Shown: positions 371-56,125 of the stretch, one piece after another | Position numbering within the stretch: the first letter of the stretch is position 1 | Layout: each line of letters begins with the position of its first letter | Source: Candidatus Saccharimonadota bacterium | Lineage (GTDB): Bacteria > Patescibacteriota > Saccharimonadia > Saccharimonadales > Saccharimonadaceae | NCBI GenBank assembly: GCA_017404335.1 | Contig: JAFRCN010000002.1 | Location: 101,821 to 165,820 of the forward strand | Direction of reading: 5' to 3' | Length of the DNA stretch: 64,000 nt | The notes under the pieces: model-generated | Seen by the model: the letters and a program-made list of their open reading frames with translations, nothing else | What the model was told of the DNA's origin: nothing | Database searches by the model: none | Made by a program: the position numbers and the translations under genes

Positions 371-452
371 GCAACAAAAACTACTTCTCGGACACACTCA
401 AGGGCGTTCGCCCAAGCTTATGGTCCTCGAAGTAGTTTTTTGTTGCCTTTTT
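370..452 (+). terminator. long hairpin terminator after tig
   Basis: Arms of about 18 bp, GGCAACAAAAACTACTTC (370-387) and GAAGTAGTTTTTTGTTGCC (429-447), flank a GC-richer ~40-nt core. A T-run follows. Confidence 0.5.
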
Positions 453-9473: not shown

Positions 9474-9487
9474 AGGTAGGAGTTATT

Positions 9488-9715
9488 ATGGAAATAGGAA
9501 ATTTTTTAGAAATTGTCGTATTTGTTTCAGCGATTTTAACGATTCTACTAATTCTTTTGCAGCAACGTGGAGCCTCGCTTGGCTCAGGCTCGGGTAGCTC
9601 TAGTGAACTATACACGAAGAGGCGCGGTCTTGAAAAGTCAATGTTTATCGCGACACTCGTGTGCGTAGTCGCTTTCGTTGGCTCGATTCTAGGATTATTA
9701 TTAATACCAGCATAG
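9488..9715 (+). CDS. secG: preprotein translocase subunit SecG
   Basis: 75 aa with two TM segments and LLQQRGASLGSGSGSS, which is typical of SecG. Confidence 0.8.
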   Translation: MEIGNFLEIVVFVSAILTILLILLQQRGASLGSGSGSSSELYTKRRGLEKSMFIATLVCVVAFVGSILGLLLIPA

Positions 9716-9716
9716 T

Positions 9717-11459
9717 ATGAAAAAAACTTTAAGAAAGAGTGGGCAAAAATTTATTCGGAAATTCTCGCGAGTTTCTTTAAAAGTTGGTGAGGAAGGAAAA
9801 GAACACTTAAAGCGCAACTTTTTTGGTAAACTGCGAAACTTTGCCGATATTAGGCTTTTGATACTAGAATGGGGGCTTTTGGTACTAGCTTTAATCATGC
9901 TTGCGAGCACGCAGGCGTTTTGGTTTGGGGAATCGTATGCGGGCGATGCTTTTGTAGGAGGCGGGACATACATTGAGGGTACGGTAGGGAAGGTCTCATC
10001 TTTAAACCCATTGTTTGCTACGACGAATAGTGAAAAAGTTTTAAGCCGGTTAATGTTCGAGACTTTGACCACCGTCGATTACTCAGGGAATATCGGTATG
10101 GGTCTAGCAAAATCGATTGCACCGAGCGAGAAAGGTAAAGTCTGGACGCTGGAGCTTAAAGAGGGACTAAAATGGTCGGATGGGGAGGAGTTGTCTGTGG
10201 ATGATGTAATGTTTACGATTGGCCTAATCAAGAATTCGGCGGTGAATTCAGTCTACACTGCAACTCTGGCGGGAGTAAAAGCTGAGAAAAACGAAGAAGG
10301 GAAGATTATTTTTACGCTTCCGGCAGCTTATGCCGATTTTCCTAGCACACTTAATATCCCGATAGTCCCGAAACACGAGCTAGAAAAAACTGACCCGAGA
10401 ACTTTAATTGAAGATGATTTTTCGAACGCGCCAATTACTTCTGGGGCTTTCTCATTCAACGCCATCCAATCGGCATCAAAAGAGGAGCGAGTTTTCTACC
10501 TAACGCCGAACCCAAACTATCGAAAGCGGGGAGTGATGGTTACAAATTTCGCGGTCCATACATACAATACGGTTGATGACGTGATCCAAGCACTAAATAC
10601 TAATGAGATTACGGCGACAGCGGAGATAAGCGGCAAGAAGGCCGATGGTCTAAAAATCGGTCAGTTCTACCGCAAGAATTCGAGCATTAATTCAGGAGTG
10701 TTCATATTCTTTAATACTAGTAGTGGAGTTTTTAAAAACCGAAATTTAAGGTTAGCAGTTCGTCAAGGCATTGATTTGGAAAAACTTCGAGAAAAAGCTC
10801 CGGAAACTAGTGAGTTGGATTACCCGATTTTGAGGACTTCGCTTGAACTTTCAAACTACCCGGAAATTTCAGTACAAGACTTCGATTCCGCTAAGGCTAT
10901 GGTTCAGGAGAACTATGATAACACCCCTATTAGAGTCGCAACAATAAACTCCGGTTACTTTTCCGAGGTTGCGGAAGAGCTAAATGGTCAACTTCAAGCC
11001 TTAGGGTTTAAGACAGATTTCTCTGTATCAGAGGAGGCACAGGAGTTTATCACTAATATCGTTTCGCGACGAAATTACGATATTTTGGTTTATGAAATCG
11101 AGCTAGGAGCCGATCCGGACCCGCTAGCTTATTATCATTCTTCGCAGGTAGCCTCGAGTGATGGTCTGAGTGCCGGTTTAAACCTGGCCAATTACAGAAA
11201 TGCCTTGGTGGATGATTTATTGATTGGGGCGAGAGAAACCCTTGATGCAAGCTTAAGGATTGCGAAATATGAGAAATTTCTGAAATATTTAGCCGAAGAC
11301 GTCCCGACAATTGGACTTTACCAGACAAATTTAACTTATTTTTACAACAAAAATACTCGTGCGTTTGGTGATAATGTGCGGCTAGTGACCGCGTTGGACC
11401 GTTTTTCAGACATATCGAATTATGCCGTGATGAAAGAATTAAAAAATAAGACTCCTTAA
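9717..11459 (+). CDS. ABC transporter substrate-binding protein, family 5 (peptide/nickel type), N-terminally anchored
   Basis: N-terminal TM segment. WSDGEELSVDDVMFT and the overall length are typical of SBP_bac_5. Confidence 0.65.
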   Translation: MKKTLRKSGQKFIRKFSRVSLKVGEEGKEHLKRNFFGKLRNFADIRLLILEWGLLVLALIMLASTQAFWFGESYAGDAFVGGGTYIEGTVGKVSSLNPLFATTNSEKVLSRLMFETLTTVDYSGNIGMGLAKSIAPSEKGKVWTLELKEGLKWSDGEELSVDDVMFTIGLIKNSAVNSVYTATLAGVKAEKNEEGKIIFTLPAAYADFPSTLNIPIVPKHELEKTDPRTLIEDDFSNAPITSGAFSFNAIQSASKEERVFYLTPNPNYRKRGVMVTNFAVHTYNTVDDVIQALNTNEITATAEISGKKADGLKIGQFYRKNSSINSGVFIFFNTSSGVFKNRNLRLAVRQGIDLEKLREKAPETSELDYPILRTSLELSNYPEISVQDFDSAKAMVQENYDNTPIRVATINSGYFSEVAEELNGQLQALGFKTDFSVSEEAQEFITNIVSRRNYDILVYEIELGADPDPLAYYHSSQVASSDGLSAGLNLANYRNALVDDLLIGARETLDASLRIAKYEKFLKYLAEDVPTIGLYQTNLTYFYNKNTRAFGDNVRLVTALDRFSDISNYAVMKELKNKTP

Positions 11460-11531: not shown

Positions 11532-11537
11532 TATATT

Positions 11538-11673
11538 GCTATACCAAATGATTACACAACCGAAGTTCTTTTAAGTATAGTCAGCAGTCAGCAATGGCGC
11601 CGTAAGGCATCGTGATTGTTGACGGAACTTTGGTTGATGATTATGGTATAGCACCCTTGCGGTGCCATTTTTG
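11538..11673 (+). ncRNA. candidate ~135-nt structured sRNA (rod-like hairpin plus terminator), class unknown
   Basis: The 31-nt arm 11538-11568 pairs with 11625-11652 (includes GU pairs). The inner stem is capped by a GUAA loop (GCC-GUAA-GGC). Terminator: GCACC-CTTGC-GGTGC followed by a T-run. No ORF. Confidence 0.45.
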
Positions 11674-11892
11674 TATGACCTTTAGACAAACCCCCACCGC
11701 GAGGGCTTAGAACGAAAAAATACGAAAAGCATGCGTATTTTTTTTATTACTTCGTCAGGTTGTGGTTTTTGGTGTAGTAAAACTGCTGGCAATAAGTTTG
11801 AGAAGAATAACCGGTCATTCTTCGCCTGACGGTGAGAGAAGTTACTTTCGTTGGCCTGGAAAGGAGCAACTTGCCAACATGTATGGCAAGAT

Positions 11893-11963: not shown

Positions 11964-14918
11964 GTGAAATATAAAACTAAAAGTAGACGAAATACCATAG
12001 AATATGAGAAAGCTCTTGCCGATTGGTGGAAGAAGAATCATGTTTTTGAGAAGTCCGTTGATGAACGGCCCGTTAACGACTCATATGTGTTTTATGATGG
12101 GCCACCGTTCTTAACCGGTTTACCCCATCATGGACATTTGTTAGGATCTACCATTAAGGACGCTGTCGGTCGGTATTGGACGATGAGAGGGAAACGCGTA
12201 GAGCGTGTTTGGGGATGGGATTGCCATGGGTTACCTGCTGAAAACTATGTCGAAAAGCAACTTGGGATTAAAGACAGAAGAGAGATTGGAACGAAATGGT
12301 CTCTCGAAGACTATATATTGACTGCAAAAAAATCAATGGAAGAGATTAGTGATGAATGGGAGCATACGATTACTCGCATCGGACGTTGGGTCGAATTCAA
12401 GGGTGCTTACCGCACGATGGACAAGGACTTCATGGAGTCAGTTTGGTGGGCGTTTAAAAAACTATATGATGCAGGAAAGATCTATGAAGGCCGTAAAGTT
12501 TTGATGTATGACACAAAGTTTGCAACGCCGGTCTCAAAAGCGGAAGTCACGATGGACAATGATGCTTATCAAGTAGTGACCGACCCTAGCGCGTATGTTA
12601 AGTTTAAAATGCGCGGTGAAGATAAATGTTATTTTTTGGCCTGGACTACAACCCCATGGACTCTGCCTGCGAATATGTGTCTCGCTATCAATCCTGAGTT
12701 GACATATGGATTTTATGATGTCAAGGGGGATACTTTAATTTTGGCAACGGATCGCGCAAAAGTATTATTCAAAGATTTAAAACCGACCAGGACAGTAAAA
12801 GGATCCGCTATAGTTGGAAAACAATATGAACCAATTATTGATGTGATGAATGGGCCGTTTAGTCTGGGACTGCGTGGCGACAAGGGTGCCGTTGTGCGTA
12901 AGGATACATACACGGTTTTACCTGCAGATTTTGTGTCGGCGGAAGATGGCACCGGCATAGTTCACTGTGCTCCAGCTTATGGTGAGGATGATTACGCCCT
13001 GTGCCAAAAACACGATGTTAACTTTGTAGACTGTCTAGATGAAAACGGTTATTATTTACCAGAAATATCCGACAAGCTTCATGAGCTTGGAGTCAAAGAT
13101 ACCGACGAGACCGGAATTCAGGTATGGGCGGGTAATAAATATATTGCGAAAGCGTTGGAAAATAAAGGTGTAATCTATATGATTGAATATATCCAGCACG
13201 AGTACCCATTTAACCCACGTTCGAAGGAACGAATCATTTATCGCGCATTTCCGTCTTGGTTTTTTGATGTGGATGGCTCAAAAGCTTTAATGATAGAAGA
13301 AAATGAAAATATTAATTGGTTCCCAGGATATTTGAAATATGGTCGTTTTAAGAAGAATATCGAAGCGGCACCAGATTGGAACTTGTCACGCGATAGATTC
13401 TGGGCGACCGCTATGCCAGTTTGGAAGGGGAACAATGGGACGGTAAAAGTGATAGGATCATACGATGAGTTGTATGAACTGTCTGGCGTGAAACTCGATG
13501 ATTATCATAGACCGTGGGTAGATAAGATTGAGTTTGATATTAATGGCGAGCATTTTAAAAGAATAGAAAAGGTATTAGATTGTTGGTTTGAATCTGGGTC
13601 CATGCCATTTGCGCAACACCATTATCCATTCGAGAATAAGGAAAAGTTTGAGGCAAATTACCCAGCTGATTTTATCGTGGAATATGTCGGTCAAGTAAGG
13701 GCGTGGTTCTACTATGTTCATTGTTTAAATACGAGTTTAGCGCAGATTGGGGCGTTCGGCGAAAAGGCAAAGAATGGAGCCAAGAATGCATTTAAGAACG
13801 TAATTACGACCGGTACGATTGCTGGCAATGATAAGCGAAAAATGTCTAAATCGTTGGGGAATTTTACAGATCCAAATATTCTGATGGATCAGTATTCCGC
13901 GGACGCATTACGATTGCTGTTGTTGTCGTCGTCTGTTTGTGCGGGTGAGGATTTTGCACTACTAGATAAGGATGTATCAGACGTAAACCGTAAGCTCGGG
14001 ATGATATGGAATGTATATGATTTCTTTACGATGTATGCGAGCGTAGATGGAATTGATAGCAATAGCCTAAAAGGCTTAGATATTGAGAAATTGAATAATC
14101 CTTTGGACACATGGATCATTTCTAGACTATACCAATTAAGAGGCGATATTACCGGGGGAATGAATATCTATAATATTCCCAAAGCCCTTGATGGCGTATT
14201 GCCATTCGTGGATGATTTATCGAATTGGTTTGTACGGCGTTCGCGACGACGTTTTAAGAAAACCGAAGACGAAGACGATAAAGCTGAAGCGTATGCAACT
14301 TTGTATTTTGTTCTGGTATATTTAAGTAGGATTATTGCTCCGTTTGTACCGTTTATAGCGGAAGAATTGTACAAAAATATGACCGGAGATGATGGCTCGG
14401 TGCATCTTTTAGACTGGCCGGAAGCGGGCATGATAAATAATGAAGTGTTAGAGAAAATGGCCAAGACGCGGGAAATCATTAAAAATGGGCTAGCGTTAAG
14501 AATGCAAAAGTCAGAGACTGAAGAGCAAATTAAAGTGCGTCAGCCGTTAGCAAAACTGACTTATGACGGGGAAAAATTGCCAGAGTTCTACGAACAGATG
14601 ATTGCAGAAGAAGTAAATGTAAAAACGGTTGAAAATGGCAAGAAAATAGCACTAGACAAAACGCTAACGGAGGAATTATTGGAGGAAGGTTTTGCGCGCG
14701 AGATAATAAGGGCCGTACAGGTGGCGCGTAAGAAAGCCGGACTAGATGTAGACGATCATATTCGTTTGTCACTATCCGTAGAGGTTAATGAAAAATGGCG
14801 TGATTCCGTAATGAGTGAATCGTTAGCTACCACTCTTTGTTTGAACGAGAATTATGAATTTGATATGATTGCAAAGGTTAACAATAAGAACATAACAATA
14901 TCGTTGGAAAAAGTATAA
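11964..14918 (+). CDS. ileS: isoleucyl-tRNA synthetase, type 2 (eukaryote-like) form
   Basis: GTG start. FYDGPPFLTGLPHHGH (HIGH region) and KMSKS motifs. 984 aa. The N-terminal layout is typical of IleRS2 rather than bacterial IleRS1. Confidence 0.9.
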   Translation: MKYKTKSRRNTIEYEKALADWWKKNHVFEKSVDERPVNDSYVFYDGPPFLTGLPHHGHLLGSTIKDAVGRYWTMRGKRVERVWGWDCHGLPAENYVEKQLGIKDRREIGTKWSLEDYILTAKKSMEEISDEWEHTITRIGRWVEFKGAYRTMDKDFMESVWWAFKKLYDAGKIYEGRKVLMYDTKFATPVSKAEVTMDNDAYQVVTDPSAYVKFKMRGEDKCYFLAWTTTPWTLPANMCLAINPELTYGFYDVKGDTLILATDRAKVLFKDLKPTRTVKGSAIVGKQYEPIIDVMNGPFSLGLRGDKGAVVRKDTYTVLPADFVSAEDGTGIVHCAPAYGEDDYALCQKHDVNFVDCLDENGYYLPEISDKLHELGVKDTDETGIQVWAGNKYIAKALENKGVIYMIEYIQHEYPFNPRSKERIIYRAFPSWFFDVDGSKALMIEENENINWFPGYLKYGRFKKNIEAAPDWNLSRDRFWATAMPVWKGNNGTVKVIGSYDELYELSGVKLDDYHRPWVDKIEFDINGEHFKRIEKVLDCWFESGSMPFAQHHYPFENKEKFEANYPADFIVEYVGQVRAWFYYVHCLNTSLAQIGAFGEKAKNGAKNAFKNVITTGTIAGNDKRKMSKSLGNFTDPNILMDQYSADALRLLLLSSSVCAGEDFALLDKDVSDVNRKLGMIWNVYDFFTMYASVDGIDSNSLKGLDIEKLNNPLDTWIISRLYQLRGDITGGMNIYNIPKALDGVLPFVDDLSNWFVRRSRRRFKKTEDEDDKAEAYATLYFVLVYLSRIIAPFVPFIAEELYKNMTGDDGSVHLLDWPEAGMINNEVLEKMAKTREIIKNGLALRMQKSETEEQIKVRQPLAKLTYDGEKLPEFYEQMIAEEVNVKTVENGKKIALDKTLTEELLEEGFAREIIRAVQVARKKAGLDVDDHIRLSLSVEVNEKWRDSVMSESLATTLCLNENYEFDMIAKVNNKNITISLEKV

Positions 14919-29349: not shown

Positions 29350-29464
29350 TACTAAGACGCCTCCTTAGAGTTAGCAATATGGCGTCGTAAGTAGTTATAT
29401 TATAGCATAAGTTTTATTGTTTTGCATAGGGTTTTTAATGACTTTGCATGTTATAATGATAGAT

Positions 29465-31444
29465 ATGGCTAAATTTAAGCTTGTTTCGAAATTCCGACCG
29501 ACTGGAGACCAACCCGAGGCGATTCGCCGGCTAACCGACGGGATTAATCGGGGTATCCACGAACAAACTTTGCTCGGGGTGACTGGGTCGGGAAAGACTT
29601 TTACGATGGCGAATATTATCCAAAACGTCCAGCGACCAACTTTAATTTTGGCCCATAATAAGACCCTTGCGGCTCAGCTTTATTCTGAGTTTCGTGATTT
29701 CTTTCCGGAGAATGAAGTGCATTATTTCGTCTCGTACTTTGATTATTATCAGCCGGAAGCTTATATTGCTTCGACCGACACCTATATCGAAAAGGATTCG
29801 GCAATTAACGATGAGATTGACCGGCTACGACACGGAGCCACCGAAGCTTTACTTACTCGACGCGATGTAATTGTAGTCTCATCCGTATCGTGCATTTACG
29901 GCATTGGGTCGCCCGAGAATTATTTGGAAATGTCTTTTGAGATTACAAAAAATGACGGAATATCACAATTGGAGTTCATCAGAAAGCTAGTAAATATTCA
30001 ATACCACCGGAATGACTTGGCGTTTGAACGGGGGAATTTTCGGGTGATGGGGGATACAATCGATTTATTTCCGGCGAACGGAGAATATGCGTATCGGTTT
30101 GAATTTGGATTTGATACTTTAGAAGAAGTGAAGATTGTTGACCCTTTGACTTTTGAGGTTCGCGAGAAACCGGAGCACATTCATATTTTTCCAAACACCC
30201 ATTATGCGACACCGATGGACCAGCTTGAGAAGGCGCTTATCACAATTCGGGCAGAGTACGAGGATAGGTTAAAATATTTTGAGAAGCATCAAAAATACCT
30301 CGAGGCGCAAAGGCTTTCGCAACGCACGAAATACGACTTAGAGATGTTGAAAGAGACAGGGTTTGTTAAAGGGATTGAAAATTATTCTAGACACTTAGAT
30401 GGCCGCGCGCCGGGACAGCCACCTTCGACTTTGCTCGATTTCTTTCCGAAAGATTGGCTGCTCATCGTCGATGAGTCGCACATGACTTTACCGCAGGTGC
30501 GCGGAATGTATAATGGCGACCATGCGAGGAAGTTGGCGCTTGTCGATTACGGTTTTCGACTACCGTCAGCTCTGGATAACCGACCTTTAACCTACGGCGA
30601 GTTTCAAAAGAAGATTAATCAGGCTATCTATGTATCGGCGACTCCAGGAGAATATGAATTGGAAGTTTCACCAGAGCCGGCGGAGCAGGTAATTCGCCCA
30701 ACTGGGCTGCTCGACCCGGAGATTGAAGTTAGGTCGTCGGACGGACAAATCGACGATTTGATGGAAGAAATCGACCAGCGGATCGCGAAGGGCCAGAGGA
30801 CTTTAATCACGACGTTAACGAAGCGGATGGCGGAGGACTTGACCGACCATCTAAAAGAGCGCGGCGTAAAGACGGCCTATATTCACTCGGATATCGATAC
30901 ATTGGAGCGCGGAGACATATTACGAGATTTACGGGCGGGAGTTTACGACGTTTTGGTCGGAATTAATCTTTTGCGCGAGGGGCTAGATTTGCCGGAAGTA
31001 TCGCTCGTTGCGATCTTGGATGCGGATAAGGAAGGATTTTTACGGTCAGAGTCGGCACTAATCCAGACGATAGGTCGCGCGGCGAGACATGAAGAGGGGA
31101 AGGTGATCATGTATGCGAATTTTATTACCGAGAGTATGGAGAAGGCGATTTCCGAGACAAATCGGCGACGCGAGATACAGAAAGAATATAATGCAAAGCA
31201 TCATATTACGCCGCATTCGATTCAGAAGGAAGTCGGAGCGGGGCTTCGGGCGATTATCCCGGAAAAGGAGAAAGAGAATAAACTCGATATTAAACGGATT
31301 CCGAAGGATGAATTGCCGACCCTGATTAAATCTTTGCAGTCCGAGATGCAACTCGCCGCGGCGAACCTTGAGTTTGAAAAAGCGGCGGGACTACGCGACG
31401 AAATTGAGAGAATTAAGGATTTTATCGAGGGTAAAAAATCATAG
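29465..31444 (+). CDS. uvrB: excinuclease ABC subunit B
   Basis: The start is taken at MAKFKL (M17 of the tracked ORF), 7 nt after [21 protein letters not shown] and a UVR C-terminus. Confidence 0.94.
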
Positions 31445-38846: not shown

Positions 38847-39134
38847 ATGGACATAAAACGCGAGGATATTTTGCATTTGGCTAGTTTGTCGAATTTCAAT
38901 CTGACTAATACTGAAATCGAAAGCTTAGGAAGGGATTTGCAGGGAATTATTAAATACATTTCGCAACTTGACGAACTCGATACCGATGGGGTTGAACCGA
39001 CGTATCAAGCTTTTGAGATGGAGAACGTTTGGCGAGAAGATGAAATTCTAGAACAAGAAGCTTCGCGCGAAGATTTGCTCGCGCTAACTAAAAATGAAAA
39101 AGATAATCAAATAAAGGTGCCAAAAGTATTATGA
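38847..39134 (+). CDS. gatC: Asp/Glu-tRNA amidotransferase subunit C
   Basis: 95 aa. HLASLSNFNLT...GVEPT is typical of GatC. Leaderless layout. Confidence 0.88.
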   Translation: MDIKREDILHLASLSNFNLTNTEIESLGRDLQGIIKYISQLDELDTDGVEPTYQAFEMENVWREDEILEQEASREDLLALTKNEKDNQIKVPKVL

Positions 39135-40585
39135 AAACTGCGAATAAAAAAGTTACCGCCGAGAGATTAGTGAGAGATGCTTTAGAAAAAGCGAAACATT
39201 TTTCTGATTATAATATTTTTACGTTTATAAATGAAGAAGGCGCGATTTTACGCGCGCGTGAAATCGACGCGAAGATTGCTAACGGTGAGAAAGTCGGGCG
39301 ACTCGCGGGAGTACCGTATGCCCTTAAAGATAATTTTCTTTCGCCTGATGGCGAAACGACGGCTTCGGCACATATTTTAGGTGGGTTTACCTCGCCGGTT
39401 ACGGCGACGGCGGTTGAGAAGTTAGAAGCTGAGGGAGCGATTATGATCGGGCGAACCAATTTGGACGCTTTTGCGCACGGATCGTCGACTGAGAATTCTT
39501 ACTATGGACCGACTTTGAACGCGTTTGACCGCAAGCGAGTGGCCGGAGGGTCGTCGGGTGGATCGGCGGTAGCGGTAGCGCTTGATATTGTTGAATTTAC
39601 GACTGGGACGGACACCGGTGGATCGATTCGTCAGCCGGCGTCGTTTAATGGAATTTATGGGTTTAAGCCGACTTATGGGACGATTAGTCGGTACGGCGTG
39701 GTCGCGATGGCGTCGTCGCTTGATTGTATCGGGTTCTTTACGAAAACGCCGGAAGATATGGATCTTCTTATGGAGATTACTGCCGGACGAGACCCGAAAG
39801 ATTTGACGACATTGCCCGATTACTACAATTCTATCGATAGGGATTCGCTAGGCGCGGCGTGTCCTTCGGACACGCTCCGGGCCGCTCTGGCCAAGTCTTC
39901 ATGTTCCGCAGAACACATCGCGCCTAGCGAATCCCATCGAATTGGAATTATCAAGGATTTCGATAATGAGTCGGTCGATAAGGAGATTCGAGATGCGCTC
40001 TTGAAGAAGTGTGAGATGCTGAAAGAGAAGGGATGTGAAATTGTTGAGCTTGAGATGCTGAGCCTCAAATATGCTTTGCCGGCGTATTACATTATTCAGC
40101 CGGCGGAGGTGGCGTCGAATTTATCGCGATACGACGGAGTGCGCTACGGATTTCGTTCGGAAAAGTCGGCGGATTTAGATTCTCTATATAATAATACGCG
40201 GAATGAAGGCTTTATGCCGGAAAACAAACGCCGGATTATGATTGGAAATTTCGTGTTGTCGTCTGGGTTTTACGATGCATATTTCTTAAAGGCGGCAAAA
40301 GCGCGGACTTTAATTATTCGTGAATATGAAAAGGCTTTTTCTAAATGTGATTTTATTCTAACGCCGGTTTCACCGAGCCCGGCTTTCCGACTCGGCGAAA
40401 AAGTTAACGACCCGGTCGCAATGTATCTTGAAGACGTCATGAGCGTGTCTCTAAATCTAGCTGGAATACCAGGACTTACAATCCCAGCGGGAAAGACTAC
40501 CGAAGGATTGCCGATTGGGTTGCAGCTAGTTGGTCCGAGGCGTAGCGATAAAAACCTAATAAAATTCAGTAAGGAGCTAATCTAA
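39131..40585 (+). CDS. gatA: Asp/Glu-tRNA amidotransferase subunit A, carrying a 32-aa in-frame insertion
   Basis: Amidase signature GGSSGGSAVAVA and TDTGGSIRQPA. The insertion is described separately. Confidence 0.93.
   Translation: MKTANKKVTAERLVRDALEKAKHFSDYNIFTFINEEGAILRAREIDAKIANGEKVGRLAGVPYALKDNFLSPDGETTASAHILGGFTSPVTATAVEKLEAEGAIMIGRTNLDAFAHGSSTENSYYGPTLNAFDRKRVAGGSSGGSAVAVALDIVEFTTGTDTGGSIRQPASFNGIYGFKPTYGTISRYGVVAMASSLDCIGFFTKTPEDMDLLMEITAGRDPKDLTTLPDYYNSIDRDSLGAACPSDTLRAALAKSSCSAEHIAPSESHRIGIIKDFDNESVDKEIRDALLKKCEMLKEKGCEIVELEMLSLKYALPAYYIIQPAEVASNLSRYDGVRYGFRSEKSADLDSLYNNTRNEGFMPENKRRIMIGNFVLSSGFYDAYFLKAAKARTLIIREYEKAFSKCDFILTPVSPSPAFRLGEKVNDPVAMYLEDVMSVSLNLAGIPGLTIPAGKTTEGLPIGLQLVGPRRSDKNLIKFSKELI
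39835..39939. repeat. GC-rich palindromic element inserted in frame in gatA
   Basis: 17-nt perfect inverted repeat: GGGATTCGCTAGGCGCG (39840-39856) with CGCGCCTAGCGAATCCC (39919-39935). Inner hairpin GCGTGTCC-TTCG-GGACACGC. Confidence 0.8.
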
Positions 40586-41004
40586 TGGATGGTGGAGTAG
40601 TAACTTTTATCTTTGCGATTTTAATCGTTGCGGTGTTGGTATTTGTGGCGATTTTACTAACCGGAAAGCGGGGATACCATTTTAACGTTGAAGCTTATCA
40701 ATCACGCTTTTTAGCGATTGAAAACAGATTAAAGCAAGATAATCCGGCGAGTTTTGTGACGACAATTATCGAAGGGGATAAATTACTTGATAAGGCGATG
40801 GTTGAGATGGGGATTTCCGGAAAGACAATGGGTGATAGATTAAAAAAGGCGAGTGGTCGGTTTACGAATTTAAATGCAGTTTGGCGCGCACATAAACTTC
40901 GTAATATGATTGCGCACGAGTCGGACGTCGAAATTAGCTACAAACAAGCGTTTAATGCGCTCGCGGTTTATAAACAAGCTTTGAAGGATTTAGGAGCAAT
41001 ATGA
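40585..41004 (+). CDS. membrane-anchored hypothetical protein with an HEPN-like RNxxxH motif
   Basis: TAATG overlap with gatA and ATGA overlap with gatB. N-terminal TM segment. AHKLRNMIAHE motif. Confidence 0.65.
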   Translation: MDGGVVTFIFAILIVAVLVFVAILLTGKRGYHFNVEAYQSRFLAIENRLKQDNPASFVTTIIEGDKLLDKAMVEMGISGKTMGDRLKKASGRFTNLNAVWRAHKLRNMIAHESDVEISYKQAFNALAVYKQALKDLGAI

Positions 41005-42413
41005 AATATACGCCAACGATTGGAATTGAATGCCATGTTCAACTTTGTACGAAAACGAAGTTGTTTTCGGAAGTCGATAACGACGCGAGGAGGAAGGAAC
41101 CAAATTCTTGCGTTTCGCCGGTCGACTATGCTTTGCCGGGGATGTTACCGAGGCTAAACGGTGAGGCGGTCCGCTTCGCGATTCGGGCGGGTCGAGCAAT
41201 GAACTGCGAAATTAATGCGTATTCACGATTTGACCGGAAACATTATTTCTACCCGGATTCGCCGAAGGGTTATCAGATTACGCAGTTTTACCACCCAATT
41301 ATTGGCGCGGGATACGTAGAGCTACCGTCGGGTACCAAAATTCGGATTGAGCACGCGCATCTCGAAGGAGACGCGGGGAAGTTGACGCATTTTTCGGATT
41401 ACTCGCTGGTTGATCTAAACCGAGTCGATACGCCTTTGATTGAGATTGTCTCAATGCCAGATATCCATAGCGCTAAAGACGCTCACGATTACTGTAAAGA
41501 GCTTTGGCGGTTGATGTGCTTCGCGGAAGTGACCTACGGAGATCTATATAACGGAAATATGCGGTTCGATGTCAACGTTTCGTTGGCGCCGGAAGGTTCC
41601 GATAAATTGGGAACGCGAGCGGAAGTGAAGAATCTGAATTCGTTTAAGAGCGTTGAGCGGGCGGTCGAATATGAAATTTCAAGGCAGAAGAAAATTCTCG
41701 AAGCTGGTGAAAAGGTTATCCAGGAAACGCGTGGGTGGAATGATGCGACCGGGAAAACGACCGGACAACGTTCAAAGGAAGAGGCGAAAGATTATCGTTA
41801 TATGCCGGAGCCGGATTTGCCACCGATTAATCTGTCGGAAGAGTTTATTGAGACCGAGTCGAAGAAGTTGCCGCTAATGCCGAAAGATTACCGCGAGAAA
41901 TTCGCTGGAATTATTCCAAATGATATTCTAGAAATTTTATTAGATTATCATGAATTAATGAAAAAACTAAATGAAATTGATAATAAATATGTAAAGATTA
42001 TTTCTAACTTATTCGCTTCGGTGCTGCTCGCGGAAGAGAAGTCGGCGGAGTACTTAAATGACTTACCGAGCGCGAAGGACTTAATTGAACTTGCGGAGAT
42101 GAATGAGAAAAAGGAGCTGTCTTCGACGGCGACGAAAGAAGTGTTTTTGCGATTATTTGACCCGCAAATGAAAGGACGAGGGGCGAAGACGATCGCGAAG
42201 GAACTCGGTTTAATTCAGGAAAATGACCTAGGGGCGCTCGAAGCGATAGTCGACGCCGTTTTAGCAAAACCGGAAACGAAAAAGGCTCAGGAAGACTTCA
42301 AGGCAGGCCAGGAAAAAGTGATTGGGTTTTTGGTCGGACAAGTAATGAAAGAGTCAAGAGGCAAAGCCAACCCGTCTGCAGTGCAAGAAATTTTGCGAAA
42401 AAAACTTGCTTAA
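41001..42413 (+). CDS. gatB: Asp/Glu-tRNA amidotransferase subunit B
   Basis: IGIECHVQL, HLEGDAGK, and a GatB/YqeY C-terminus. Confidence 0.94.
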   Translation: MKYTPTIGIECHVQLCTKTKLFSEVDNDARRKEPNSCVSPVDYALPGMLPRLNGEAVRFAIRAGRAMNCEINAYSRFDRKHYFYPDSPKGYQITQFYHPIIGAGYVELPSGTKIRIEHAHLEGDAGKLTHFSDYSLVDLNRVDTPLIEIVSMPDIHSAKDAHDYCKELWRLMCFAEVTYGDLYNGNMRFDVNVSLAPEGSDKLGTRAEVKNLNSFKSVERAVEYEISRQKKILEAGEKVIQETRGWNDATGKTTGQRSKEEAKDYRYMPEPDLPPINLSEEFIETESKKLPLMPKDYREKFAGIIPNDILEILLDYHELMKKLNEIDNKYVKIISNLFASVLLAEEKSAEYLNDLPSAKDLIELAEMNEKKELSSTATKEVFLRLFDPQMKGRGAKTIAKELGLIQENDLGALEAIVDAVLAKPETKKAQEDFKAGQEKVIGFLVGQVMKESRGKANPSAVQEILRKKLA

Positions 42414-42427
42414 GCTTGCATTTTTGG

Positions 42428-42925
42428 AACGAAAGGAGTAATATATAATTCACGCGGGTAAAGTTTTTGACTAACCCGACGTAATTTAAGAGGAAAGGAG
42501 ATGGCTTTCGTGCGGGATGAGTTCCTGCGGCAAACGCTTTGTCCAGCGTATGTGTCGTTTGTTCTCTATCTCGGGAAAAAGGCGGAGCATTCTGATCGAC
42601 CGGGTAGGTTAATCCTCACGGACGGTTCGACCCGCCAGTTTTTCCCATGGCACCCCAAGCGACGGCGGGGGTACCTACGGTCCAGTCTGTATGTCGAAAC
42701 CCGGCCTACATGACTAGGAAGATACTAGGTACCCCCGCTAGTTATTTCGCCCTTCGGGCAAAGGGCAAGCAGAAAGCATATCGGGAGCACACAACGAATA
42801 CTGGCGGTCGGAGAGCCCAAAATGAGTGGCGGCCGACTTGAGGGTAGACCGCTAGGGCGGCTCCTCACCATCATTCGCGACGCAGACAAAACCATCGTTT
42901 CCAGTACTTTTCTACCATTCCCATG
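42428..42925 (+). ncRNA. rnpB: probable RNase P RNA (bacterial type), unusually long; ends approximate
   Basis: Four elements occur in the expected order. GAGGAAAG lies at 42489-42496 (CR-I-like). GGGCAAAGGGCAAGC lies near 42755. GGAGAGCCCAAAAUGAG lies near 42809. GCAGACAAAACCAUCGUUU lies at 42881-42899 (CR-V-like) and can pair with AAAGGAGAUGG as P4. Overlapping ORFs look non-coding. Confidence 0.55.
42664..42737. repeat. 74-nt hairpin with a 13-bp perfect stem inside the RNase P RNA region
   Basis: GCGGGGGTACCTA (42664-42676) pairs with TAGGTACCCCCGC (42725-42737). Confidence 0.75.
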
Positions 42926-42938
42926 GGTCAAAGACCCG

Positions 42939-42963
42939 GCCCCGGCCAAGTGCCGGGGTTTTT
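42939..42963 (+). terminator. rho-independent terminator
   Basis: CCCCGGC-caagt-GCCGGGG followed by TTTTT. Confidence 0.75.
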
Positions 42964-43067
42964 CTTTAAAATCTTTCGAAAAAAGAAAAAGTATGATAAA
43001 ATGGAGAAAATGCGTCTTTTTGAGTGTGGAACTCTTGGACAAAAATAATTAAGTAATAAAGGAGCAT

Positions 43068-49647: not shown

Positions 49648-50325
49648 GTGGCGGATTTATATGTTATACATGGGTGGACCTACACGGTGGAGCCTTGGAA
49701 GACGACAATAAAGCTACTCCGCGAAAACGGAATTAGCGTAAAGATGTTAAACGTGCCAGGACTGACGGAGCCATCAAACAAGGAATTTACGATTGCGGAT
49801 TATGTAAAATGGGCCGATAAGGAGATCCCGGACGGAGCGATTGCGCTCGGACATTCGAACGGGGGGAGAATTTTAATGAATCTTTGTACGCTTAAGCCTG
49901 AGAAATTAAAATATTTGATTTTGCTCGATTCGGCGGGAGTATATGAGCCGACGGCGAAGAAGAAATTGATCGAAAAAATGGCGAAAATTGGTAAACCGCT
50001 CAAGAAGATACCGCTAGTCGATAAAGCTTTTCACCGAATTACCGGAACGACGGATTATTCGAAGGCGCCGGAGAATATGAAAAAGACGCTGGCGAATATG
50101 CTGGCGTCGGATAAGGATTTAGATTTTTCGAAGGTGACAACGAAGACGTTTATTCTTTGGGGGAAGAAAGACACAACCACTCCACCGAGGCATGCGACAA
50201 AGATTTATGAAGGATTACCGAATGCGGAGCTGAAGTTTTATGCGAATTGGACGCATGCGCCGTACATTTCGAGTCCGGAGGAGCTGGCGCGGGCGCTAGT
50301 GACGCTCATGGGGAGGATTAAGTGA
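49648..50325 (+). CDS. alpha/beta hydrolase
   Basis: GTG start, GHSNGG nucleophile elbow, 225 aa. Confidence 0.7.
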   Translation: MADLYVIHGWTYTVEPWKTTIKLLRENGISVKMLNVPGLTEPSNKEFTIADYVKWADKEIPDGAIALGHSNGGRILMNLCTLKPEKLKYLILLDSAGVYEPTAKKKLIEKMAKIGKPLKKIPLVDKAFHRITGTTDYSKAPENMKKTLANMLASDKDLDFSKVTTKTFILWGKKDTTTPPRHATKIYEGLPNAELKFYANWTHAPYISSPEELARALVTLMGRIK

Positions 50326-51608
50326 AGCATTATTTTCTTGGGATGGCGGCGAATTACTCGGGCGGTAAGTGGCTCCGGCATCTTTTTGCGGTGGGGCGAA
50401 AGAGGGATTATGATGAACTAGCGGAGTTTTTAGGAAAGAAATATGACGGGGAAGCGGTTTTGTGTAAAAACGGAAGGTCGGCTTTAGCTTTAGCTTTAAA
50501 GACCTATTTTCGGCCGGGAGATGAGGTTTTGGTTAACGGGTTTACATGCTATGCGGTTTATGAGGCCGTTAAGGCGGCTAAACTGAAGCCAGTTTTTGTC
50601 GACATAAACAAGCAGGATTTAAATTTTGATATTAAGACGCTCAGGAACGCTAGGTCCGGTCGATTCGAGGTCATTCGCGACAACGGGAGCGAGATAGCGA
50701 GCGAGCCCCGTAACGACGGGCGCGAGCGAAGCGGACCGAGAAGCGACTGGACTAGCGTTCAGGGGATTATTATTCAAAATACACTTGGAAATCCGGTGGA
50801 TATTAAAGCGATTGAGAGGTTTGCGAAGGAAAATGATCTTTTGATTATCGAAGACTTGGCGCACTCGGCGGGAATTAGATATCCGGATGGGAGAGAGGCC
50901 GGAACGGTCGGAGTGGCGACCGTCTTATCATTCGGAAAAGACAAGTCGGTTGATACAATTTCGGGAGGCGCGGTAGTGTTCAGGGGTGAACTTTTGTCAA
51001 ACTTTGGGGCGCGTCCGGCCGGCCCGTTGCCACGGGCGGCCGGCGCTACTCCTCGCGCTGCCGCGCTCCGGACCCCCTCAGTTTTGACAAAAGCTTCACC
51101 CAGTAAACTCCCAAGACTCCGAGATCATCTCAGAGCGAGGTTTTATCCGATGTTTGGGGCGCTGTGTCGGACGCTGTCCTATGTTCATTTAGGTGGAGTC
51201 TTGATGCGACTACTAGTTAAAATCCATTTGGTCGAAAAATCGGCGGATAATAAGCTCGATTTAGAGCGCAGAATGAGTAAATTCGAAGCAAAATTAGCGT
51301 TAGAACAAATCAAAAAATTGAAGAATAAACCGCTTAGGAAGTTTTATCTAGTAGACGACCGAGAGAAAGTTTTGAAAGAATTACGAAAAGCGGGATACTT
51401 TTTCGACGGGTTTTGGTACGAAAAGCCGGTCTCACCGGAGAGGTATTACAAAAAGGTGCATTTTCCGGAGGAGGAGTGCCCGAACGCGGTGTTTGTTTCG
51501 AAGCGTATTATTAATTTCCCGAATATTTATTCTAGGGAGGAGCTAGCGACGGCGCGTAAAATCATTGAGAAATATCTCATCAAGGAGGGTGCGGATGGAA
51601 AAAAGTAA
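50322..51608 (+). CDS. DegT/DnrJ/EryC1-type aminotransferase with two 39-aa in-frame insertions
   Basis: Family-like blocks (VNGFTCYAVYEAV..KPVFVD, IIEDLAHSAG, SFGKDK). The two inserts are described separately. Confidence 0.75.
   Translation: MKHYFLGMAANYSGGKWLRHLFAVGRKRDYDELAEFLGKKYDGEAVLCKNGRSALALALKTYFRPGDEVLVNGFTCYAVYEAVKAAKLKPVFVDINKQDLNFDIKTLRNARSGRFEVIRDNGSEIASEPRNDGRERSGPRSDWTSVQGIIIQNTLGNPVDIKAIERFAKENDLLIIEDLAHSAGIRYPDGREAGTVGVATVLSFGKDKSVDTISGGAVVFRGELLSNFGARPAGPLPRAAGATPRAAALRTPSVLTKASPSKLPRLRDHLRARFYPMFGALCRTLSYVHLGGVLMRLLVKIHLVEKSADNKLDLERRMSKFEAKLALEQIKKLKNKPLRKFYLVDDREKVLKELRKAGYFFDGFWYEKPVSPERYYKKVHFPEEECPNAVFVSKRIINFPNIYSREELATARKIIEKYLIKEGADGKK
50645..50760. repeat. GC-rich palindromic element A, in frame in the DegT-like gene
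   Basis: GAACGCTAGGTCCGGTCG (50645-50662) is an imperfect inverted repeat of CGACTGGACTAGCGTTC (50744-50760). The core contains CCCGT-aacg-ACGGG. Confidence 0.7.
50985..51100. repeat. GC-rich palindromic element B, in frame in the DegT-like gene
   Basis: GGTGAACTTTTGTCAAACTTTGGGG (50985-51009) is an imperfect inverted repeat of CCCCCTCAGTTTTGACAAAAGCTTCACC (51073-51100). The core is very GC-rich and self-complementary. Confidence 0.75.
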
Positions 51609-52665
51609 TCTAGAATGGGCGGAAATCGTCAAAAAGTTCCCGGAGGCGAATTTCTTACAGTCGCCGGCTTATGCGGAGATGAATAGGCTAATTGGCGAGA
51701 AAGTAATAATCGAGGATTTTGACGGGAAGGGGCGAGCGCTGATGGTTGTAAGAGAGGCAAAACGAGGAAAGTATCTCGAGATTCCGTGCGGACCGCTGAT
51801 CGACTGGAAGGATACAAGGCTGGTAAAGCGCGTCTTGAAGCGAATTAACGAAATCGCGAAGGCGGAAAAGTGTGTCTTCGTGAGGATTAGACCACAACTT
51901 TATAAAACTCCTGAGAATATGAAGATTTTGGAGCGGGCGGGGCTAAAAAAATCGCCGATGCATCTCGCGGCGGAACATACGGTGGTAATCGATTTAAGTA
52001 AAAGTGAGGATGAGCTACTAGCTAAAATGCGAAGACAAACCCGCTATGATGTCCGGCGGGCGGAAAAACTCGGAATTGAAGTACTAAAAAGTAATTCAGA
52101 GGAGCTATTCAAGGAATTTCATGGGGTGCAGGCGGAAACAGCAAAAAGACAAAAGTTTATTCCGCCGAGTTTAGAGACTTTGCTGGCTGAGAGAGCGGCT
52201 TTTGGCGATAACATCGCAATTTATGTAGCGACAATCGACTGGACGGGTCCTGCCGTCGCATCTTCCCCTGCGCGCGCTGGCGCGGGGGACCCCCAAGCGA
52301 CGTCACCCGTCCATGAACCACTATCTAAACCAATTGCTTATGGTCTCGTGATTAAGGACGGAAAGGAAGGGGATTATTACGAAGCGGCGTCGACGGATTT
52401 GAATCGGAAACTACCGGGAGCACATGCAATTCTATGGCGGGCGATGCGAGATTTGAAGGCTGAGGGCTATGAGCGATTTAACCTTTGGGGGATTGCGCCG
52501 GCGGGGCAACCGCACCACCGGTACGCCGGAGTGACAACATTCAAGACCGGCTTCGGTGGAGAGATTGTCGAATACGTCCCGGCGCATGACATGATTATTT
52601 CGCAGGTGCGATATTTAAAAAACTGGATAGTTGAAACGGCGCGAAGAAAAAGGAGACATTTATGA
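51595..52665 (+). CDS. FemAB-family peptidoglycan peptide-bridge transferase (paralog 1, with insertion)
   Basis: The start is taken at MEKSNLEW, 6 nt after AAGGAGGG. FemAB-like blocks include RRQTRYDVRRAEKLG. Confidence 0.75.
   Translation: MEKSNLEWAEIVKKFPEANFLQSPAYAEMNRLIGEKVIIEDFDGKGRALMVVREAKRGKYLEIPCGPLIDWKDTRLVKRVLKRINEIAKAEKCVFVRIRPQLYKTPENMKILERAGLKKSPMHLAAEHTVVIDLSKSEDELLAKMRRQTRYDVRRAEKLGIEVLKSNSEELFKEFHGVQAETAKRQKFIPPSLETLLAERAAFGDNIAIYVATIDWTGPAVASSPARAGAGDPQATSPVHEPLSKPIAYGLVIKDGKEGDYYEAASTDLNRKLPGAHAILWRAMRDLKAEGYERFNLWGIAPAGQPHHRYAGVTTFKTGFGGEIVEYVPAHDMIISQVRYLKNWIVETARRKRRHL
52240..52313. repeat. GC-rich palindromic element, in frame in FemAB paralog 1
   Basis: TGGACGGGT (52240-52248) pairs with ACCCGTCCA (52305-52313), plus GCCGTCGC with GCGACGTC. 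Inner hairpin CCCCTGCGC...GCGCGGGGG. The element is absent from paralog 2. Confidence 0.75.
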
Positions 52666-54618: not shown

Positions 54619-54775
54619 GTTTTTATTGTAATACTAAAGTTTAGGCTTGTCAAGGGGTAAAACATTAAAGGATAGCGATAAATAAAAAAACGCTCATAAA
54701 AGCGTTATATTTCCGTTATAGCACAGATTGTAGAATTTGTCAAGTTTTAAGGGTTTGTGGTGGTATAATGATAAG

Positions 54776-56125
54776 ATGGGGAAAAGTTTTATCGCGATAG
54801 ATTTAAAGTCGTTTTATGCGTCAGTCGAGTGCGTCGAACGGGGGCTGGACCCTTTAAAAGCGAAGCTCGTGGTCGCGGATGAGTCGCGGACGGATAAGAC
54901 AATTTGCCTCGCGGTGTCGCCGGCCCTTAAGGCGCTCGGGATTCCGGGGCGGGCGAGGCTATACGAGGTGAAGCAAAAGGCGAAGGACTTTATCATCGCG
55001 GTGCCGCGGATGGCGTTTTATATCAGCTATAGCACGCGTATCTATAATATCTATCTTCGTTACATCGCGGAGGAAGATATGCACGTTTATTCGATTGATG
55101 AAGTATTTATCGACGCAACGCCGTATCTAAAAAACTATGGCTTGCCGGCAAAGGAGCTGGCGCAAAAGATTTTAAAAGAGATTTATGAGGAAACCGGGAT
55201 TACGGCGACGGCGGGGATTGGGACGAATTTGTATCTTGCGAAAGTGGCGATGGATATTTTGGCAAAGCACGAGGAGCCGGACGAAAACGGAGCGCGGATT
55301 GCAGAGCTAGACGAGATGGGCTATCGGCGGAGACTGTGGAATCACCGACCGCTGACGAATTTTTGGCGAGTCGGAAGGGGATACGCGAAAAGGCTCGAGG
55401 CGGCGGGGTTATATACGATGGGGGACGTCGCGCTCTGTTCGGAAAAGGATGAGGATTATCTTTATAAAATGTTCGGGGTGAATGCGGAGCTTTTGATTGA
55501 CCATGCTTGGGGATGGGAGCCCTGCGAGATTTCTGAGATTAAAGCATATCGACCAAGTGTTAATTCATTTTCCTCGGGCCAAGTTTTGAAGGAGCCGTAT
55601 AGTTTCGAAAGGGCGCAGGTGATCGCGCTCGAGATGGCGGAGGAGGTTAGCCTCGGTCTTCTATCTAAGAAGCTGACGACGGACCAGGTGATTTTAACGG
55701 TGGGGTACGACGTAACGAGCTTACCGGGATACACCGGCGAGACGAAAGCGGATTTTTACGGGCGGACAGTGCCGAAGCCGGCGCACGGGACCTATAATCT
55801 CGCGCGAGCTACGTCTTCGGCGCATTTAATCTCCGAGGCGGTAGTGAAGTTGTTTGATGAGAAAGTGGACCGAGAGTTAAAAATTCGACGACTAACGATA
55901 GACGTAAATCACGTAAAACGAGAAGGGGAGACGGAGCTAAGGCAACTAGGGCTATTCGATGAGAGAATCGACGAGAGTGAATTAAAGAAAGAAAAGCGAG
56001 CCGAGGAGGCGATGCTTAAAATCAAGAAGAAGTACGGAAAAAATGCAATTTTGAAGGGGATTAATTTCGAAGAGGGGGCGACGGGGAGGGAGCGAAATGT
56101 ACAGATCGGAGGCCACCGAAAATGA
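54776..56125 (+). CDS. Y-family DNA polymerase (UmuC/DinB/UvrX-like)
   Basis: The start is taken at MGKSFIAIDLKSFYASVEC, 6 nt after TGGTATAAT. The tracked TTG start at 54737 is rejected. Confidence 0.88.
   Translation: MGKSFIAIDLKSFYASVECVERGLDPLKAKLVVADESRTDKTICLAVSPALKALGIPGRARLYEVKQKAKDFIIAVPRMAFYISYSTRIYNIYLRYIAEEDMHVYSIDEVFIDATPYLKNYGLPAKELAQKILKEIYEETGITATAGIGTNLYLAKVAMDILAKHEEPDENGARIAELDEMGYRRRLWNHRPLTNFWRVGRGYAKRLEAAGLYTMGDVALCSEKDEDYLYKMFGVNAELLIDHAWGWEPCEISEIKAYRPSVNSFSSGQVLKEPYSFERAQVIALEMAEEVSLGLLSKKLTTDQVILTVGYDVTSLPGYTGETKADFYGRTVPKPAHGTYNLARATSSAHLISEAVVKLFDEKVDRELKIRRLTIDVNHVKREGETELRQLGLFDERIDESELKKEKRAEEAMLKIKKKYGKNAILKGINFEEGATGRERNVQIGGHRK

Follow-up and report, generated by a model that had tools for sequence, protein, structure and literature searches.

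A hairpin-forming insert in gatA of a Saccharibacteria genome, one copy of a multicopy palindromic DNA element

The gene gatA, encoding subunit A of the Glu/Asp-tRNA amidotransferase, carries a long hairpin inside its reading frame in a 64,000-nt stretch of a Candidatus Saccharimonadota genome (assembly GCA_017404335.1, contig JAFRCN010000002.1; this whole stretch is called the window from here on). The question raised by this locus is what such a structure is doing in a housekeeping gene and where it comes from. The analysis presented here shows that the hairpin is one copy of a multicopy, GC-rich palindromic DNA element that sits in frame; the element is probably selfish and would have acquired its arms at the DNA level by template switching. 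Elements of this kind form several related families in gut and rumen Saccharibacteria (Candidatus Nanosyncoccus and relatives).

The insert in gatA and its site in related genomes

A first description of this inverted repeat, made from the sequence alone (the original prediction), reported two perfect 17-nt arms, a stem continuing past them with one bulge, and 32 extra residues encoded in frame within gatA. All of this was borne out. The arms were recovered in the sequence and by inverted-repeat scans, and the stem goes on through a TCGAT/ATCGA pairing with a bulged A (Table 1). The ATCGA segment overlaps the H-R codons just upstream of the conserved RIG motif, and in the minimum-energy fold weak pairing extends to 39827/39949. 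Regarding the inner helices, the stem described as 8 bp with a UUCG loop is actually GCGTGTCC-UUC-GGACACGC, with a 3-nt loop and 19 nt in total, one G having been counted twice. The TGTTC-CGCA-GAACA hairpin does appear in the fold of the window, but it is not kept in a sister subtype of the element.

The RNA fold of positions 39825-39950 (126 nt) reached -70.8 kcal/mol, compared with -36.2 +/- 3.7 in 200 shuffled sequences (z = -9.3), and the minus strand of the same stretch gave -75.4 kcal/mol (z = -10.8). By simple arithmetic, about 8e-4 perfect inverted repeats of at least 17 nt within 220 nt are expected per 64 kb. Only two hairpins of the window have perfect arms of 14 nt or more, the one in gatA and an AT-rich 16-mer.

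The insert comprises 96 nt and encodes GatA residues R237-S268, RDSLGAACPSDTLRAALAKSSCSAEHIAPSES. This 32-residue peptide is of low complexity, with seven Ser and seven Ala. The protein around it is a typical GatA: PF01425 homologs were retrieved for it, and its alignment with Pseudomonas aeruginosa GatA (4wj3_A, E = 2.7e-118) covers both halves. The solved GatA structures match both sides of the insert (E = 1e-118 to 1e-94) and show a gap or break at the insert itself, around residues 243-259 of Staphylococcus aureus GatA (2df4_A). The 120 closest homologs all belong to Saccharibacteria and have 456-521 aa, and all their differences in length fall between the ...PDYY(N) and (R)IG(I/V)IKDF motifs. 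The insertion site corresponds to a gap or break in the structure alignments and to a length-variable linker among homologs. An AlphaFold2 model of GatA from a 44-sequence alignment had a mean predicted local distance difference test score (pLDDT) of only 45.7 and was unusable for placing the insert, probably because the homologs used are all 78-89% identical.

The site was then compared in 80 species-level genomes, which are gut or rumen metagenome-assembled genomes of 'Candidatus Nanosyncoccus' and other Saccharibacteria. The limits of the gatA linker were clear in 78 of them, where it is either 27-48 nt long and AT-rich (50 genomes) or 63-219 nt long, GC-rich and strongly folding (28 genomes). 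The fold, the gap in the structures and these 50 genomes are in agreement with the initial view of a hairpin-forming extra segment where GatA has a short linker. A homologous 30-aa segment is not a general feature of the orthologs: most relatives have no insert there, and the inserts of the others have unrelated sequences or a different orientation. In a poorly resolved GatA tree, filled, empty and oppositely oriented alleles are interleaved, and even sister pairs differ, such as L001 (filled) and L012 (empty), or L026 and L041, with a family-X element in forward and in reverse orientation, respectively. The same elements appear in many independent assemblies from different animals, which argues against an assembly artefact.

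A repeated core with site-specific arms

BLAST searches with the gatA inserts revealed the same cores in other genes, both of the same genome and of other genomes, with 64 copies in 1.5 Mb of related loci. The variety of the insert peptides comes from a few DNA cores read in different frames and orientations. For instance, TCGCGCCCGTCGTTACGGGGCTC is read as SRPSLRGS or LAPVVTGL, and its complement as EPRNDGRE or SPVTTGAS. The core present in the window, designated family A, was initially found only in gatA. An exact 21-mer of it was then scanned against metagenome contigs and gave 19 matches, 17 of which are true family-A copies; the remaining two (L092 and L100) were discarded as chance matches with no surrounding element. 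The family-A core is about 90% identical or more in at least 13 genes and three intergenic sites, in both orientations. According to Pfam, the genes encode RsmA, EngA, XseA, PriA, TrmD, LeuRS, a LepA-like GTPase, IleRS, an FtsJ-like methyltransferase and topoisomerase I, to which FemAB-like and DegT-like proteins and gatA itself are added. The three intergenic copies are terminator-like. Moreover, copies of one family with 93-100% identity are found in two genes of a single genome in L013, L045 and L011.

No second copy of the 17-nt gatA arm exists elsewhere in the window. Such unique arms suggested that the gatA element was unique as well, an idea ruled out by the multicopy core. This multicopy nature in many genes, together with a stem that is a site-specific addition around a 62-nt core, goes beyond what the original prediction had seen.

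The window contains five elements in total, the gatA copy and four of related families (Table 1). The DegT/DnrJ/EryC1-type aminotransferase open reading frame (ORF) at 50322-51608 holds two different in-frame elements, of families X and C. In its metagenome ortholog (L097), a reversed family-A core stands at the position of the first element. The DegT-type gene is thus a further linker that has been hit recurrently. The same happens in gatB and in uvrB. The uvrB hotspot, located after residue ~181 of UvrB, is unoccupied in the window (uvrB, 29417-31444) and filled in the orthologs of L021, L024, L030, L045 and L071, which carry 20-50 extra residues from the same element families. The hotspot linkers of GatA, GatB and UvrB are each occupied in roughly a third of the 80 related genomes. 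Apart from the five elements, the window has at 11536-11655, between the ORFs at 9717-11459 and 11964-14918, a long hairpin with imperfect pairing (-54 kcal/mol) and a higher AT content than theirs.

Fifteen family-A copies were aligned on the core. Its helices are invariant or nearly so. The arms behave differently: they are 14-24 nt long and unrelated from site to site, all 20 arm pairs vary on both sides, and 86% of the arm positions are nevertheless paired, compared with about 35% after sliding the pairing by 1-3 columns. None of 500 shuffles matched the observed level of covariation. As the arms are site-specific and the core is conserved, the repeated unit does not include the long perfect stem. 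Furthermore, the base composition of the arms tracks the local context, being AT-rich at intergenic sites and moderate in genes. In the filled gatB alleles, the 5' arm encodes the conserved host motif L-x-E-[ILMV]-x, and its reverse complement forms the 3' arm, which replaces the host residues that empty alleles have there.

Changes in the arms are coupled. Between the window and L081, a T-A pair has become C-G, with the protein changing from L to P on one side and from S to G on the other, and the TrmD orthologs of L089 and L095 differ by three coupled arm changes. L098 and L082 have near-identical arms around oppositely oriented cores, and L021, L010 and L054 present deletion remnants. An empty gatB allele (L030, 12760-12839) shows a perfect 14-nt inverted repeat made of host codons (ILEILL/LKSISN, 52 nt apart) that brackets the hotspot; at this position, gatB of the window has only partial complementarity (TAGAAAT/ATTTCTA). 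The L030 repeat looks like a quasipalindrome that was 'perfected' without any core.

Some elements also contain nested pieces. In gatA of L007 (10697-10861) and L026 (10697-10855), a second short GC-rich piece lies exactly in the apical CCCGT-NNNN-ACGGG loop of a family-X element, and a similar nested piece is found inside the family-A core in the IleRS gene of L094. In L013, the gatA (9448-9591) and gatB (11665-11817) copies are in opposite orientations with ~93% identity over 108 nt; they have an inner arm of ~16 nt in common and different outer arms. It would seem from these copies that a core can take along a stem made at one site, which is then lengthened at the next.

Some of these features could also be explained if the insertion reaction itself made the arms, through an inverted duplication of about 15-20 nt of the target, or if it were directed to the loops of pre-existing DNA hairpins, in both cases by a distinct, undescribed mechanism and not by a palindrome growing slowly once the core is in place. 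The nested pieces exactly in the inner hairpin loop and the host-only repeat around the gatB hotspot of L030 would fit with it. Arm lengths cluster at 14-24 nt at independent sites, which could reflect one-step arm formation, and the intergenic copies seem to lie inside terminator-like stems, as if the cores targeted existing hairpins. On the other hand, no enzyme was found for such a reaction, and we know of no transposition chemistry that gives inverted target duplications. In addition, part of the arms of L013 moved with the core and the outer arms apparently came later, and the perfection of the arms varies, those of the family-C element in the window being imperfect. This explanation is considered unlikely.

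Reading frame, level of the palindrome and proposed origin

Every one of the 28 gatA alleles with an insert has an intact ORF, and of the 64 copies recovered with BLAST, 60 are inside long intact ORFs. Forward family-A copies, present in eight genes, are always read in the frame AACPSDTLRAA(Q/L)AKSS(R/C)SAEH, and the reverse copies of six genes always in one frame, CSAEHEDLARAARS / CSAEHEDLARAARSVSEGHAA. Since three forward and two reverse frames of family A are free of stops, the chance of the observed single-frame use is about 1e-5. Family X uses two frames per orientation. One core subtype contains a TGA in the favoured reverse frame, and no copy of it occurs reversed inside an ORF; the six reversed copies in ORFs all belong to the other subtype. 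The preferred family-A frames give Ala/Ser/Pro-rich peptides, and the avoided ones give aromatic or Arg-rich peptides. As one frame is used per orientation, family-A inserts are most likely translated, with filtering acting on the peptides.

This has consequences for two other explanations. The first is that the insert is removed or skipped, by stem-guided RNA excision or by translational bypassing, so that GatA is made without the 32 residues. The stem would indeed bring the two junctions together. Nevertheless, removal would lift the constraint on frame and stops, and nearly all intragenic copies observe both, with a single frame in use per orientation and no in-frame matched pair of take-off and landing codons at the junctions in the window. 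The removal at RNA level that the original prediction had kept as a fallback is thus highly improbable. A bypass element of the T4 gene 60/byp type was rejected as the frame is kept, the insert is stop-free and the matched codon pair is missing, and RNA-level splicing was rejected on the strict conservation of the frame. An intein or mini-intein was discarded too: these need at least ~130 aa, an N-terminal Cys/Ser and a C-terminal His-Asn followed by Cys/Ser/Thr, and the insert has 32 aa and none of these motifs.

The second is that the peptide is an adaptive insertion at the protein level, which might for instance give GatA of these epibionts a new loop for interactions. The frame, and hence the peptide, is conserved among family-A copies, as would be expected. 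However, the same peptide occurs in unrelated enzymes, in gatA of close relatives it is absent or swapped for unrelated peptides, and its composition is of low complexity. An adaptive role of the peptide is therefore hardly to be expected.

A different possibility is a functional mRNA structure, which could pause the ribosome between the two halves of GatA to favour co-translational folding, or serve as a stability or RNase III signal in the gatCAB operon. The very stable fold, the coupled changes that keep the arms complementary and the terminator-like intergenic copies are in line with this idea, and so is the recurrence of the elements at interdomain linkers of GatA, GatB and UvrB, which could reflect such a function rather than permissiveness or targeting. 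Under selection on the mRNA, the sense strand would be expected to allow G·U and not A·C. Among 89 helices, the single mismatches between Watson-Crick pairs were G·T in 15 cases and A·C in 20, and 14 and 21 in an enlarged helix set; with only ~35 mismatches, some of them from orthologous, non-independent copies, this is supporting evidence and not proof. In the arms of the family-A alignment, G·U occupies 5 of 300 cells. Moreover, the site is empty in about two thirds of the related genomes, unrelated cores occupy it in either orientation, and one core is found in at least 13 unrelated genes. A search of the complete window with Rfam at the gathering score, together with a sensitive scan of 39780-39990, yielded nothing beyond sub-threshold matches to generic hairpins (microRNA precursors). 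The lack of a G·T excess, both orientations, the mostly empty site, the unrelated host genes and the lack of an Rfam match indicate that the palindrome is maintained at the DNA level and is not an RNA element functioning in gatA expression, and the mRNA explanation is very unlikely. A cloverleaf like that of tRNA or transfer-messenger RNA was also tried and rejected, ARAGORN being blank at the site.

The reading preferred here, a multicopy palindromic DNA element with arms made by template switching, would work as follows. The elements would insert into, or persist only in, those linkers of housekeeping genes that tolerate indels, and selection would filter the copies for frame and stop-free reading, giving rise to short Ala/Ser/Pro-rich loops. 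Persistence only in tolerant linkers and innocuous frames would explain both the hotspots and the frame bias. In place, the GC-rich core hairpin could provoke intrastrand template switching in replication (quasipalindrome correction), in which one flank is copied as its reverse complement over the other, so that perfect arms would be formed in one event. Template switching would also move accumulated changes from arm to arm, and the arms would stay perfect with coupled changes. The same process would allow the core to be inverted between its arms and would favour hairpin-mediated deletions, and the extended hairpin could itself be copied to a new site. Template switching creates and maintains perfect stems (PMC8794818) and has been proposed for the coding palindromes of nematomorph mitochondria (PMC6649704). 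It seems to be the most probable cause of the arms. We infer no dedicated cellular function for the elements, which could be selfish or neutral. As a separate observation, an ORF of 462 aa at 54737-56125 presents, as read by eye, the N-terminal motifs of a Y-family (DinB/UmuC-type) DNA polymerase, and the putative enzyme may be relevant to error-prone or template-switching synthesis.

Several points weigh against this reading. No transposase, nuclease or other mobilising gene was identified. In the 1.6 Mb searched, neither a longer autonomous relative nor a parent insertion sequence (IS) was detected, the core-end motifs being found only in short elements. A clear direct target-site duplication was not visible either, the flanks being inverted and not direct repeats. 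The junctions often show short self-complementary tetramers (CGCG, TGCA, GTAC), which can be read as direct or as inverted. The comparison DNA consists of metagenome assemblies sampled around gatA, and as the loci are centred on this gene, any genome-wide density would be an extrapolation. To these must be added the poor resolution of the GatA tree and the small set of mismatches in the wobble comparison. The evidence for translation of the insert is the conservation of the frame, and that for its surface exposure is the indel tolerance of the alignment, because the AlphaFold2 model was unusable. The recurrence at interdomain linkers, the clustered arm lengths and the terminator-like stems around the intergenic cores, all mentioned above, have the same sign. 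A phage or viral origin was considered and rejected, with no match in BLAST against phage genomes or in two exact-pattern scans of IMG/VR.

A bolder version, which is held here only tentatively and is doubtful as a whole, is that these elements could be an undescribed mobile hairpin DNA whose spread is coupled to the formation of a palindrome at the target, by an inverted duplication of ~15-20 nt of the flank or by loop targeting, with the stem then carried along in an 'onion-like' layered growth. If this were true, new peptide loops would be continuously written into essential genes of a minimal genome.

Regarding the genes around the insert, gatC, gatA and gatB are accompanied by an ORF of 139 aa (40585-41004) located between gatA and gatB, with an overlap of a few bases with each. 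It has a hydrophobic N-terminal segment, the same length in L081 and L082, and no Pfam match, and it seems to be a conserved gatCAB operon gene of this lineage that lacks annotation. Downstream, between the gatB stop and fusA (encoding elongation factor G, 43068), ~570 nt at 42414-42990 are non-coding, GC-rich and strongly folding, with a hairpin GGCGGGGGTACCTA...TAGGTACCCCCGC at ~42664-42740. This stretch is unique to the window genome among ~100 related loci, with the final ~80 nt before fusA conserved, and no Rfam family was found for it. Possible identities are a lineage-specific non-coding RNA and a decayed gene.

Table 1. Coordinates of the gatA insert, its parts, the operon genes and the other elements in the window
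Feature	Position	Strand	Description
gatC	38847-39134	+	From the ORF list
gatA	39131-40585	+	Glu/Asp-tRNA amidotransferase subunit A, 484 aa, intact across the insert; from the ORF list and homology
gatB	41001-42413	+	From the ORF list
Whole hairpin insert (arms and core)	39834-39940		Linker between ...PDYYN and RIGIIKDF; from sequence and fold
Outer stem extension	39834-39838 and 39936-39940		TCGAT pairs with ATCGA; bulged A at 39839
5' arm	39840-39856		Perfect 17-nt inverted repeat GGGATTCGCTAGGCGCG; site- and lineage-specific, outside the conserved core
3' arm	39919-39935		Exact reverse complement of GGGATTCGCTAGGCGCG
Family-A core	39857-39918	+	62 nt, repeated unit; read here as ACPSDTLRAALAKSSCSAEH
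Core mini-hairpin (helix 2)	39857-39875	+	GCGTGTCC-TTC-GGACACGC; 99% paired across 15 copies
Core central hairpin (helix 3)	39880-39892	+	GGCC-GCTCT-GGCC; invariant
Core mini-hairpin (helix 4)	39902-39915	+	TGTTC-CGCA-GAACA; subtype-specific, 77% paired across copies
Tryptic peptides of the gatA insert			Predicted: DSLGAACPSDTLR, SSCSAEHIAPSESHR
gatB linker hotspot	41970-42002	+	Empty in the window; after residue ~330; filled in ~22-25 of 80 genomes by the same families
Element, family H (related to A)	371-445		Intergenic, immediately following the stop of the trigger-factor ORF; arms continue into a T-run, terminator-like
Element, family X	50645-50760	reverse orientation	In frame in DegT/DnrJ/EryC1-type aminotransferase ORF 50322-51608
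Element, family C	50964-51120		In frame in ORF 50322-51608; 38-nt imperfect arms, 71%
Element, family P	52240-52313		In frame in FemAB-family ORF 51565-52665

Relation to known palindromic elements

[quoted passage not shown] However, classical MITEs have conserved terminal inverted repeats that match a parent IS, and direct target-site duplications (PMC10969869, PMC2759123). The long inverted repeats described here are not conserved between copies, with variation in all 20 arm columns, and conservation is restricted to short imperfect mini-hairpins at the ends of the core; no clear direct duplication was seen, nor a parent IS in the 1.6 Mb, and the large majority of copies are intragenic. Repetitive extragenic palindromes (REP) and bacterial interspersed mosaic elements (BIME) are likewise small, GC-rich, palindromic, multicopy repeats (PMC3733652, PMC2817692). 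REP sequences have 20-40 nt, are extragenic by definition, bear GTAG/CGTC tags and occur in association with a RAYT gene (PMC3733652, PMC2817692), whereas the elements found in Saccharibacteria are mostly intragenic and 60-220 nt long.

The coding palindromes of nematomorph mitochondria resemble the arms, as they are long, perfect, locus-specific inverted repeats in genes that are gained and lost and kept perfect (PMC6649704). They are translated, both of their arms encode conserved protein regions, and they have no common mobile core (PMC6649704). By contrast, the palindromes of Saccharibacteria have a conserved multicopy core at their centre and arms in unconstrained linkers. Template-switch (quasipalindrome) mutation offers the same picture of perfect arms derived from adjacent sequence, of multi-base 'compensatory' changes in one event, and of a flank that is replaced and not added, as in gatB (PMC8794818). 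Nevertheless, it is a mutation mechanism and not an element, and the arrival of the core in new genes is not explained by it. Quasipalindrome mutation has reportedly been studied in Escherichia coli by Ripley and by Lovett.

Fungal mitochondrial GC clusters, double-hairpin elements and 'byp' inserts are other GC-rich hairpins that invade AT-richer compact genomes, coding regions included. All of these are organellar, and as the ribosome skips the byp elements, the frame is not needed for them. The elements in Saccharibacteria differ from them in keeping the frame of the host gene.

The Rickettsia palindromic elements (RPE) are the closest analogue. RPE-1 to RPE-10 (Ogata et al. 2000, 2002, as summarised in PMC10969869) are multicopy and palindromic, are inserted in frame into housekeeping genes, where they are read as a conserved peptide, and are mobilised by no known enzyme. 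The likeness extends to short repeated palindromes in several families and a small host-dependent genome; RPE are presumed to be selfish and tolerated in loops. The elements studied here were found at many unrelated loci, with a stable predicted hairpin, in frame with intact ORFs and, for family A, in a preferred frame. They are likened to RPE by kind and not by sequence, and membership of an RPE family is not claimed because the host phylum (Patescibacteria/Saccharibacteria) differs. The conserved unit is also shorter, being only ~45-80 nt here, with a long, near-perfect, site-specific stem made partly of host codons; in RPE, the palindromes belong to the repeat and decay over time (PMC6649704). 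Furthermore, the same linker is hit here repeatedly by different families in both orientations, and cores are flipped.

No earlier description in Saccharibacteria or the candidate phyla radiation was found in a full-text literature search, whose coverage leaves out most subscription-journal papers, so that this absence is not proof. If the interpretation is correct, streamlined ultra-small episymbionts carry dense and active selfish palindromic DNA inside essential genes, among them those of tRNA amidotransferase, aminoacyl-tRNA synthetases, topoisomerase I, PriA and UvrB. This would explain much of the length variation and many low-complexity loops in proteins of the candidate phyla radiation, with implications for annotation and for the marker-gene alignments used in phylogenomics, and the inserts would be natural maps of permissive sites in the host enzymes. 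Moreover, arms that are site-specific and perfect themselves would let template-switch mutagenesis and the dynamics of bacterial palindromes be studied in an exceptionally clean natural setting, and the elements as a whole would allow the movement of short mobile hairpins to be studied where there is no obvious transposase. The phenomenon known from RPE would then have a second, independent case outside Rickettsiales.

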